Assembly (NCBI RefSeq): GCF_003790525.1 | Contig: NZ_CP033635.1 | DNA length: 64,000 bases | Strand: one strand, 5' to 3' | Origin: Escherichia coli | GTDB taxonomy: Bacteria; Pseudomonadota; Gammaproteobacteria; Enterobacterales; Enterobacteriaceae | Part shown: in pieces, positions 2,284-50,015 of the stretch | Position numbering within the stretch: the stretch's first letter is position 1 | Layout: every line of letters begins with the position of its first letter | Position numbers and translations under genes: made by a program | The notes under the pieces: model-generated | Told to the model about the DNA's origin: nothing | Database searches by the model: none | Seen by the model: only the letters and a program-made list of their open reading frames with translations

Positions 2284-2607
2284 ATGAGACTTCTGATTCT
2301 GACTCTTTCATTAATAACGCTGGCGGGGTGCACAGTTACTCGCCAGGCTCATGTGGGCGAAGTTGACACGGCAACAGGTATTGTTCGGTTGGTTTATGAT
2401 CAGGCTTTTTTGCAGCATGCCCATACCGATCGTTATGTCAGTCGCGGGATCGCCGATCGCGCATGCCAGCAGGAAGGCTATACCCACGCGATCCCCTTTG
2501 GTCAGCCAGTAGGCAACTGTAGCCTCTTTGCGGGTTCCTTATGTTTGAATACGGAATTCACTTTGTCATATCAGTGCCATCATTCCGCCTTCCCTGTCTT
2601 TCTCTAA
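2284..2607 (+). CDS. yecR: lipoprotein YecR
   Basis: 107-aa ORF with signal peptide and lipobox LAGC. Confidence 0.8.
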   Translation: MRLLILTLSLITLAGCTVTRQAHVGEVDTATGIVRLVYDQAFLQHAHTDRYVSRGIADRACQQEGYTHAIPFGQPVGNCSLFAGSLCLNTEFTLSYQCHHSAFPVFL

Positions 2608-2778
2608 ACGTTTTAATCAGCGAGGGGGATCTTCGCTGATTAAATAAATAGCGGTAATGCGTTTTATTCCCATTCGTATTTTTAATAAATGATGTTTATA
2701 TTTTACCTTTTGCAAATAATAAAATAACAAATTATAGTGACGCCACAGCAACAAATATAACCTTTGTGGAGCACTATC

Positions 2779-3276
2779 ATGCTGAAACCAGAAATGATTG
2801 AAAAACTTAATGAGCAGATGAACCTGGAACTGTACTCTTCACTGCTTTATCAGCAAATGAGCGCCTGGTGCAGCTATCATACCTTCGAAGGTGCTGCCAC
2901 GTTCCTGCGCCGCCACGCCCAGGAAGAGATGACGCATATGCAGCGTCTGTTTGATTATCTGACTGATACCGGCAACTTACCGCGTATTAATACCGTTGAA
3001 TCTCCGTTTGCTGAATATTCCTCACTTGATGAATTATTCCAGGAAACCTATAAACACGAACAATTAATCACGCAGAAAATTAACGAACTGGCTCATGCTG
3101 CAATGACCAATCAGGACTACCCAACATTTAATTTCCTGCAATGGTATGTTTCTGAGCAGCATGAAGAAGAGAAACTGTTCAAATCGATTATTGATAAATT
3201 AAGCCTGGCAGGCAAAAGCGGCGAAGGTCTGTATTTTATCGACAAAGAACTCTCTACCCTCGACACACAAAACTAA
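2779..3276 (+). CDS. ftnA: ferritin FtnA (iron storage)
   Basis: ORF 2764..3276; internal ATG at 2779 gives 165 aa [30 protein letters not shown]..., ferritin family. Confidence 0.9.
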
Positions 3277-47327: not shown

Positions 47328-47711
47328 TTATTCATAGCGTCTGCTACGTGCGGGACGAGGTCGGGTGTACCAGGCAATGCTGCCTAACAATGCCCCGACC
47401 AGAGCCATAAATAAAAATCCGACCAGTGCCCCTAACCACTTTCCCGCGGTAGAGCCTAAATCGCTTTCAAATCCCGACACCGGGGCATCGGGGATCCGGC
47501 TCATCACCCAGATGTAACGCGCCATTGCCCAGACGAAATAGCCACACCATGTATAGAAAGCCCACAAAGCCAGTTTGCCACCAGGGCTGCGAGAGAGTCT
47601 CTCTTCCATCTTTGTCGAACCGTATTCCATTTTGAGATAACCCGGAAAATTCAGACTTAGTACTATTATGTGATAAAAGTCACATTTTTCCACATTGGAT
47701 GAGCCAGTCAA
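47328..47711 (-). CDS. yedR: small inner membrane protein YedR (exact start uncertain)
   Basis: 127-aa ORF with two hydrophobic segments; true start may be a few codons internal. Confidence 0.7.
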   Translation of the reverse strand: MTGSSNVEKCDFYHIIVLSLNFPGYLKMEYGSTKMEERLSRSPGGKLALWAFYTWCGYFVWAMARYIWVMSRIPDAPVSGFESDLGSTAGKWLGALVGFLFMALVGALLGSIAWYTRPRPARSRRYE

Positions 47712-47859
47712 GACTCACTCATTTTTTGAACAAATAGATAATTTTTGCGCAACGGCAGTGAATACAGGAAAAATCGTTTTGAGCGATTTTATTTATCTTT
47801 GAGATCGGCTTTATTAATTCATTTAATCAATATATTAGCACTGAATACAATTATACCTT

Positions 47860-47948
47860 TTTATTTTTCTGTGTCATGATGCCTCCGTTATTAGCCTTTT
47901 ATCGTCTTGTTTATATTTTTTGGGCCGGCATGATGCCGGCTTTTTTTT
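47860..47948 (+). ncRNA. rseX: candidate small RNA in the yedR-yedS intergenic region, possibly RseX
   Basis: Strong intrinsic terminator gccggcatgatgccggc + TTTTTTTT at 47924-47948 on + strand with no upstream protein gene; -10-like ttatac about 70 nt upstream; the rseX assignment is from memory of its reported location. Confidence 0.45.
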
Positions 47949-48260
47949 ATGCCTTCATTAATGTGCGCGTGATCACACCAGCCGTTTGGCACAACAATCA
48001 TTGATACCCCCTATGCTTCCGCTCAACTCATAACATATTGATATACATTTATAATTTTCATGAATATTTATATTTAGAATTCATAATCCTGAATTATATT
48101 AAATAGATTAGAAACATTTTGAAATCTTTTAAATACATTTGTTACATGTAATCTTTAAAATAAAATGAACTTCATAGAATAGTATCCAAATGTGCTTTTT
48201 TTTTGGATAACGGCACTTATTGATATATTCATGAAGATTATAATCACAAGGGAATACATA

Positions 48261-49424
48261 ATGAAAAGAAAAGTTCTGGCAATGCTGGTCCCGGCGTTAT
48301 TAGTTGCTGGCGCAGCAAATGCGGCTGAAATTTATAATAAAAATGGCAATAAACTGGATCTGTACGGAAAAGTTGATGCTCGTCATACTTTTTCCGATAA
48401 CCCTGGCGATGACGGCGATGAAACTATCATCGAGTTAGGCTTCAAAGGTGAGACCCAAATTACAGATCAGTTAACTGGTTATGGTCAAGCACTGACCAAA
48501 ACAAAGGCTAGCGACACTGAAGGTTCTGATAATACTTATGTCAAACTTGCTTTTGCAGGTCTGAAGTTCGGCGAGATGGGCTCCTTTGACTATGGTCGTA
48601 ACTATGGTGTGATTTACGACGTTGAAGCCTGGACAGATATGCTTCCTGTATTCGGCGGCGACTCCTATACCTGGACTGATAACTTCATGGCAGGCCGTGC
48701 AAATGGGGTAGCTACTTACCGCAATAGTGATTTCTTCGGTCTGGTGGAAGGTCTGAACTTTGCATTGCAGTATCAAGGTAACAACGAAGGCAGCAATGCA
48801 GGAGAAGATCAAGAAGGTACTAAAAATGGTCACGAAGACGTTCGCTTCCAGAACGGTGATGGTTTTGGTCTTTCCACTTCATATGACTTTGACTTCGGTT
48901 TGAGCTTAGGTGCCGCTTACTCAAACTCTGACCGTACCAATTCTCAAGTAGCTCTTGGCGGGTATCACTACAATGAATACAGCAAATTTGCTGGTGGTGA
49001 TACAGCTGAAGCATGGACATTTGGTGCAAAATACGACGCCAACAATGTTTATCTTGCAATGATGTATGCTGAAACCCGCAATATGACACCATATGGTAAT
49101 GTGGGTATCGCAAATAAAACCCAGAACTTTGAAGCTGTAGCACAGTATCAGTTCGATTTTGGTCTGCGCCCATCTCTTGCATATGTTTATTCAAAAGGCA
49201 AAGACCTCGGCGGTAACGACTATAACAACAATGGTCATCAAGAGTATGTTGATCAGGATCTGGTCAACTATGTTGAAATTGGAGCGACCTACTATTTCAA
49301 TAAGAACTTCTCAACATATGTTGACTATAAAATAAACTTGTTGGATAAAGATGACGATTTCTATGACAACAATGGCATCGCAACAGATGACGTTGTTGGT
49401 GTGGGCTTAGTCTACCAGTTCTAA
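48261..49424 (+). CDS. yedS: OmpC/OmpF-family general porin, intact reading frame
   Basis: ORF 48192..49424; ATG at 48261 gives 387 aa with signal peptide [21 protein letters not shown], porin beta-barrel ending in C-terminal ...VGLVYQF. Confidence 0.85.
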
Positions 49425-49466
49425 TCAGCCAACGCGCCGCGGCGTGTTACTGTAAAACTTAACACT

Positions 49467-49505
49467 AGCCTGAGTTCGTCCCTCATCGAACTCAGGCTTT
49501 TTTAT
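49467..49505 (+). terminator. rho-independent terminator downstream of yedS
   Basis: agcctgagttcg-tccctcat-cgaactcaggct followed by TTTTTTATT. Confidence 0.75.
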
Positions 49506-50015
49506 TGGCATTTTATCTCCCTCTGCGGCACGCGCAATTGCCAAAGCATATCGATACAGCACCTTACCCTGCCCCTGCTGGCACAATAACATCTACCAGC
49601 GACTCTTCCAGCCAACACCCAAATGCATTTCTTTATGAATTAATCTGCAACAAAACCGCCTCCCATATAGAAATATTTGCAAAAATAGTGCATGAAATAA
49701 GCTTTTTCTCTACCAATCCGGGATATAAATATTCATCAGCACCACAATATTCCACATCACTAAATCTCTCCCCGCCGCCCCGTACCTCTGATAATGGTCT
49801 AAAATCATTGAGGCCACTTGCGACGACGTTGCTCAATAAGGAAAATTTGGCGTGAATAATATTCAACACCAGTGCAGCATCATCATTACATACTTACACC
49901 CGCCGACTACCGCTTTCGATATATTGACTCAATTTTCCAGCCTGGTTAAAAATAGCGACCAGCTCAGTCGCAAATATAGTGACTACCCTAACTAAGCAAC
50001 AATAAGGAATACACT

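Follow-up and report, generated by a model that had tools for sequence, protein, structure and literature searches.

Among the closest described counterparts of the gene treated here are the Salmonella porin OmpS1, which is activated by OmpR as well as by LeuO, and the low-expression "third" porins OmpN and OmpK37, the latter a quiescent protein of Klebsiella pneumoniae. The quiescent Salmonella gene ompS1 is kept off by H-NS/StpA, and LeuO lifts this silencing (PMC4264507). In E. coli, yedS is treated as ompS1 in a study that lists "yedS (ompS1)" among the sigma-E-repressed outer-membrane genes (PMC2731931), and some sources call the E. coli proteins at the yedS locus "outer membrane protein S1"; the likeness to OmpS1 comes from this literature, from naming and from composition, and Salmonella OmpS1 is not in the best 120 matches of either protein search. 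According to PMC4048246 and PMC11267920, which cite it, the study of Warner et al. (2013, AAC 57:1935; pmid 23318808) described a carbapenem-resistant clinical isolate in which an intact yedS is translated and the active porin affects carbapenem susceptibility and resistance; the allele there is possibly a different one from ours. Under carbapenem pressure strains may lose OmpC and OmpF, and how much drug still enters can then depend on a silent third porin; the published work, as those two articles cite it, implicates YedS in such entry.

The DNA analysed here is a 64,000-nucleotide stretch from E. coli, called the window throughout. Its porin gene occupies the yedS (ompS1) slot, between drpB/rseX and hchA, and the gene order dcm-yedJ-drpB-rseX-porin-hchA-hprS is identical to that of K-12 MG1655. 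The genes dcm, yedJ and drpB (yedR) are on the minus strand, hchA and hprS follow downstream of the porin, and the sRNA gene rseX, annotated at the same place in MG1655, stands directly 5′ of the porin on the same strand. According to the K-12 annotation, adjacency of a porin gene and an sRNA gene is seen in all three pairs ompC-micF, ompN-micC, and yedS-rseX. The mechanical ORF of drpB (47328-47711, minus strand) has 127 aa and a TTG start, and the start codon of this gene is annotated inconsistently in RefSeq, which gives 282 nt (93 aa) in most strains and 303 nt in MG1655. The 590-bp spacer between porin and hchA (49425-50015) has a strong strand bias, with GC skew down to −0.46, and holds an ORF of 78 aa (49633-49869, minus strand) that RefSeq carries as a hypothetical protein in strain EC1515. 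None of the three ORFs in this spacer has a Pfam match that would mark a gene remnant, and tblastn gave no similarity between the spacer and the genes downstream of the Enterobacter porins.

The ORF list contains one open frame at the porin locus, 48192-49424 on the plus strand, for which the mechanical start, a GTG at 48192, gives 410 aa. The ATG at 48261 has a Shine-Dalgarno sequence 5′ of it and yields exactly 387 aa and a stop; judged from these signals it is the biologically sensible start. A first-pass annotation of this DNA had placed a 387-aa porin frame at 48192-49424, of which the length stands while the start coordinate belongs to the mechanical GTG. Its central claim, that this single frame is intact, is borne out: no internal stop or frameshift was found between 48261 and 49424 in the ORF list, the sequence or the alignment to K-12, and the protein matches the Pfam profile Porin_1 (PF00267) from end to end (profile positions 1-337 of 337, E 1.8e-135), which excludes chance. 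The ORF is a real, intact porin gene. The signal peptide that had been proposed ends with ANA before the AE of the mature chain, and its cleavage site is fixed by the mature chains of solved porins, which align from query residue 21-22. The C-terminus, ...VGLVYQF, carries the expected aromatic residue as a terminal Phe. A β-barrel prediction, which had been suggested as a check, was obtained with AF2: the model has a signal helix at residues 2-21 followed by 16 strands, with a pLDDT of 67, a moderate confidence that is due to the shallow alignment. Foldseek with this model returned OmpK37, OmpC and OmpK36 as the best matches (TM 0.74-0.82), with OmpK37 on top (TM 0.74-0.81), and OmpK37 is also the best solved relative by sequence (E 7e-153). 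In the L3 region the window protein is near-identical to OmpK37 (PDB: 6V78) and OmpN, one residue apart; these porins differ from it in being encoded at another locus (ompN adjoins micC) and in keeping the canonical residues R42, E62, R82, and E117. The features of the locus are collected in Table 1.

Table 1. Features of the yedS locus in the window, with the evidence for each
Feature	Positions	Strand	Evidence and remarks
rseX sRNA gene	47858-47947	+	Rfam RF01401, 96.7 bits (gathering score 50); own terminator at 47922-47942
AT-rich promoter/leader region	47948-48260	+	Composition, GC down to 0.22
Leader block GAACTTCATAGAATAGTATC, 20 nt	48167-48186	+	75-94 nt 5′ of the ATG; blastn to E. kobei upstream region, alignment
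Shine-Dalgarno AAGGGA	48248-48253	+	7 nt 5′ of the ATG; invariant columns in Enterobacter-group upstream alignment
yedS (ompS1-type) porin CDS	48261-49424	+	387 codons + TAA; ORF list, Pfam, NCBIfam, identical CDS in EC1515
Signal peptide, 21 codons	48261-48323	+	Identical in all sampled E. coli alleles
Hyper-divergent interior, mature barrel	48375-49400	+	20-80% identity to other alleles; boundaries ± ~25 nt
Intrinsic terminator of porin gene	49467-49504	+	12-bp stem, 7 GC pairs, T-run

The statement in the first-pass annotation that K-12 carries yedS as a disrupted pseudogene proved correct. MG1655 has the slot annotated as pseudogene yedS b4496 (formerly b1964-b1966), the annotation of K-12 DHB4 reads "frameshifted; internal stop," and the pairwise alignment that we ran against the window gene, itself free of such lesions, shows a TAG at a Leu codon of the window gene and, farther along, a deletion of 1 bp. 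The disruption is not the general condition of the species. The yedS locus is matched in 4,891 of 5,426 complete E. coli genomes, and an intact porin of 352-404 aa stands at the locus in 10 of the 14 genomes that were inspected, the other four being K-12, O157:H7 TT12B (frameshift), CREC-629 (truncated), and MLI104K2 (gene absent). Intact yedS is therefore the majority state in this sample and K-12 the exception. An intact yedS porin is already known and annotated: a gene identical to that of the window occurs in the UTI isolate EC1515 (WP_000824375.1, RefSeq "porin OmpC"), and the exact 387-aa protein is found on at least 1,000 public contigs. At the same time the gene is dispensable: K-12 and O157:H7 carry it as a pseudogene, CREC-629 in truncated and Shigella sonnei in only partial form, and MLI104K2 lacks it. 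The S. sonnei records in the protein cluster contain only partial forms (123-258 aa) of the window allele, which suggests that S. sonnei inherited a lineage of the window type and then disrupted it. In TT12B (locus L010, positions 130-410 and 1061-2247) drpB and the yedS-locus porin are both annotated as frameshifted; these frameshifts could be real or could be homopolymer sequencing errors.

K-12 yedS sits in the same slot between drpB/rseX and hchA, and its signal-peptide region, upstream region, last 24 nt and terminator are identical to those of the window (flanks 96-100%), but its mature part belongs to another lineage. The two genes have 69% global nucleotide and 72% amino acid identity, and are nearly or fully identical over the initial ~110 nt and the final 24 nt. 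A sliding identity scan in 50-nt windows of the window gene against the alleles of K-12, UTME-7, Nissle, and PBS4 gave 96-100% identity up to ~48350-48375 and again from ~49400. A distance tree of 26 proteins with 300 bootstraps resolves three E. coli lineages, namely the K-12 type, the Nissle/PBS4 type and the window type, with 100% support each. K-12-type proteins are 72-73% identical to the window protein and, among the matches listed, have relatives in Escherichia only (E. albertii, 86%, and Shigella boydii); proteins of the Nissle/PBS4 type are 59-64% identical to it, as distant as OmpC (63%) or OmpF (61%). The window type falls within a group of porins from Enterobacter, Lelliottia, Trabulsiella, and Pseudocitrobacter, with 78-83% identity and 100% bootstrap support. 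The window gene is a member of a separate allele lineage, other than that of the K-12 reference, and no repaired K-12 yedS.

The central 871 nt of the window gene recur with at least 99% identity in 379 of the 5,426 complete genomes (~7%), from many hosts, and the carriers include O111:H8 STEC and urinary isolates. A census of the complete genomes with central segments specific to each lineage, in which a match had to span at least 80% of the query, assigned 368 genomes to the window type (all at least 99% identical), 1,662 to the K-12 type in a broad sense, 1,154 to the Nissle type and 745 to the PBS4 type. The relatives in the Enterobacter group, such as the porins of E. kobei (P0065) and Pseudocitrobacter (P0029), are 80-83% identical in amino acids and are found directly after vsr-dcm-yedJ, in Pseudocitrobacter after drpB too, which makes them positional orthologues. 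They share with the window protein the motifs DARHTF and PVFGGD, two co-varying patterns of pore residues and an AT-rich upstream region, and differ in their third-position composition, in having other genes downstream and in lacking rseX upstream; no rseX reaches the Rfam gathering score in the four Enterobacter-group loci L004, L005, L023, and L024.

The less ordinary feature of the window gene appears to be that it is an old, minority allele with an unusual pore lining. In OmpF the constriction is classically made up of R42, R82, R132, D113, and E117, as known from OmpF structures and charge mutants, and several of these are among the solved-structure matches of the window protein. We compared the pore positions 16, 20, 42, 62, 64, 82, 113, 117, 121, and 132 (OmpF numbering). 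In the K-12 type, 115 of 120 proteins read KLRENRDEDR, identical to OmpF. In the window clade (n = 127), 85 proteins read KRQEKRDVDR and 36, the window protein included, read KRELKKDVDR, with a few one-off variants. Across the whole clade, E117 in L3 (PVFGGD vs PEFGGD) and R42 in the wall of the barrel have been lost and R20 and K64 are new, and the subclade of the window has in addition E62 replaced by L, R42 by E, and R82 by K. The window protein keeps K16, D113, D121, and R132, so that of the canonical arrangement, K16/R42/R82/R132 facing D113/E117, position 42 is now E, position 82 K and position 117 V. The result is a variant constriction in which the L3 loop is retained. The remodelled constriction probably changes ion and solute selectivity, and with a glutamate in effect relocated from position 62 to 42 the pore could have a distinct selectivity, β-lactams included. 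Discrete, co-varying and conserved patterns of this kind are expected of a working pore with altered electrostatics and not of decay. The non-canonical constriction of this lineage has no description in the literature searched.

Taken together, the window very probably carries an intact, functional-grade allele of yedS, the counterpart of ompS1, encoding a 16-stranded diffusion porin of the OmpC/OmpF/OmpN kind that is near-silent in culture and has a remodelled pore. Three other readings of the gene have to be weighed against this one. The RefSeq name would make the gene another copy of ompC or a variant of it, and the score against the NCBIfam OmpC subfamily model, 519.8 bits, does exceed the cut-off of 484; that model, however, is of the type "subfamily" and not an equivalog, the identity to K-12 OmpC (63%) is below that to OmpN (69%) and OmpK37 (67% in the Foldseek alignment), and the true K-12 ompC lies elsewhere, adjoining micF, while the window gene is in the yedS slot, all of which leaves the OmpC reading barely credible. 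The intact frame could also be that of a cryptic gene which is never expressed in nature and is heading to decay, with too little time elapsed for a disruption. Independent losses in K-12, O157:H7, CREC-629, MLI104K2, and S. sonnei would agree with this, as would the H-NS repression of the upstream region in K-12 and the finding of serum antibodies to YedS in only 1 of 141 people (PMC11242715), a figure obtained with a recombinant antigen that probably differs from the window allele. Such a fate is quite improbable in view of a dN/dS of at most 0.15 against every comparator, over divergences at which synonymous sites are saturated. The intact state in 10 of 14 genomes, the discrete patterns in which pore-lining residues are conserved across genera, the conservation of ribosome-binding site, leader block and terminator, and the attenuation of Salmonella ompS1 mutants in mice (PMC4264507) likewise speak against it.

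The third reading concerns the origin of the allele, which the first-pass annotation had thought possibly xenogeneic. A recent import, of the gene or only of its interior, from an Enterobacter-like donor by homologous recombination through the conserved ends would account for the sharp divergence boundaries inside the CDS, for the place of the allele within the Enterobacter/Lelliottia/Trabulsiella/Pseudocitrobacter clade and apart from the other E. coli alleles, for a K-12-type lineage whose listed matches are confined to Escherichia, and for an allele that is present in only 7% of genomes in copies that are all at least 99% identical. We nevertheless consider it unlikely. The most similar DNA from outside E. 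coli reaches just 74-75% identity, and synonymous sites are saturated (pS 0.68-0.76); GC3 of the window gene, 0.40, lies with the other E. coli alleles (0.40-0.42) and well apart from the presumed donors (0.55-0.61); and the porin has diverged (80-83% amino acid identity) to the same degree as the Dcm of the window from the Dcm of the same Enterobacter-group genomes (76-81%), dcm being a flanking core gene. The relatives are at the same locus, the ORF list of the window has no mobile-element genes flanking the porin, and the AT-rich flanks, with 96-100% identity across all E. coli allele classes, are native E. coli sequence. On GC3, saturated dS, dcm-like divergence and synteny, recent horizontal transfer of the window allele was rejected, and the xenogeneic origin has the same observations and the shared flanks against it. 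A recent import fits these data less well than does an old lineage, vertically descended and now in a minority of E. coli; acquisition long ago from a low-GC relative outside the sample is conceivable. The window lineage, common to E. coli and the Enterobacter-group genera at one and the same locus, may be the ancestral one.

The flanks of the gene had been described as AT-rich, which holds for the upstream side (GC 0.22-0.37) and not for the downstream side (0.40-0.50, compared with 0.49 for the whole window); the CDS itself has a GC content of 0.43. The corresponding upstream region of the Enterobacter-group loci is likewise AT-rich (GC 0.26-0.34). The ribosome-binding site, a "ATATTCAT" block and the 20-nt leader block are kept across genera, and the rest of the AT-rich leader is fast-evolving. 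The leader block GAACTTCATAGAATAGTATC is common to the upstream regions of E. coli and of the Enterobacter group, which hardly align elsewhere, and may be a candidate promoter −10/TSS element or a regulator site. Matches to the sigma-70 consensus in the region number 6, including those at 48073-48100 and 48139-48166, against 7.9 expected from shuffles; since they are no commoner than in shuffled sequence, we do not name a promoter.

In K-12 hns/stpA mutants rseX "and surrounding areas" are de-repressed (PMC8313858). Given the AT-rich upstream region and the published H-NS/StpA data on rseX and ompS1, H-NS silencing is considered the most likely state of the window yedS in culture. Salmonella ompS1 and the window gene both have an AT-rich upstream region, silenced in Salmonella and probably so in E. 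coli. By analogy, H-NS/StpA bound to the AT-rich rseX-yedS upstream region would probably keep yedS almost silent in laboratory culture, with expression limited to certain conditions or to regulatory mutants. The protein would be exported by Sec and, with the C-terminal Phe as assembly signal, be built into the outer membrane as a water-filled pore, as its relatives are. A dependence of YedS on MicF has been reported (Warner et al. 2013, as cited in PMC4048246 and PMC11267920). RNAduplex of the 5′ 33 nt of MicF with the yedS start region gave −10.2 kcal/mol, a value equalled or bettered by 62% of random window segments, whereas the positive control, ompF with MicF, gave −27.1 kcal/mol (0.15% of random segments). 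Direct MicF pairing at the yedS translation start is not supported by this energy, which is no better than random and covers the start region only; MicF could act on yedS elsewhere or indirectly.

With regard to the population, the window carries one of several deeply diverged E. coli lineages that coexist at yedS. The allele types, at frequencies of 7-31% each, would be kept intact while the lineages differ from each other like paralogous porins, and alleles appear to be exchanged as cassettes between the invariant signal-peptide region and the invariant 3′ end. We tentatively raise the possibility, which we rate as somewhat less than even, that yedS is under a long-lived balanced polymorphism, with four or more allele types between which megablast gives no match, grouped in three deep lineages, and with a window pore of distinct selectivity. 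The deep multi-allele structure of the locus is not described in the literature searched, and beyond the known intact gene it is this structure and the non-canonical constriction that remain as points of interest. K-12 is a poor reference for the yedS locus, and the RefSeq name "porin OmpC" hides the yedS identity of the gene. If the pore chemistry of the window lineage differs, the strains that carry it could differ in antibiotic permeability, in phage and colicin susceptibility, and in antigenicity. A multi-allele yedS locus would also suit the study of balancing selection on surface proteins.

Two further observations concern repeats and insertions. Farther along the window, at 55297-55362 on the minus strand, a weak Rfam match to naRNA4 (CssrE), with 35.8 bits below the gathering score of 59.5, is probably a REP-type repeat. 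In two other strains the yedS locus appears to attract insertions: in E. coli 204446 (L011, positions 2303-3074) the transposase gene of ISEc53, of the ISL3 family, takes the usual place of the conserved spacer, directly 3′ of an intact yedS of 400 aa, and in CREC-629 (L016) the truncated porin gene is followed by an IS3-family transposase and group II intron fragments.
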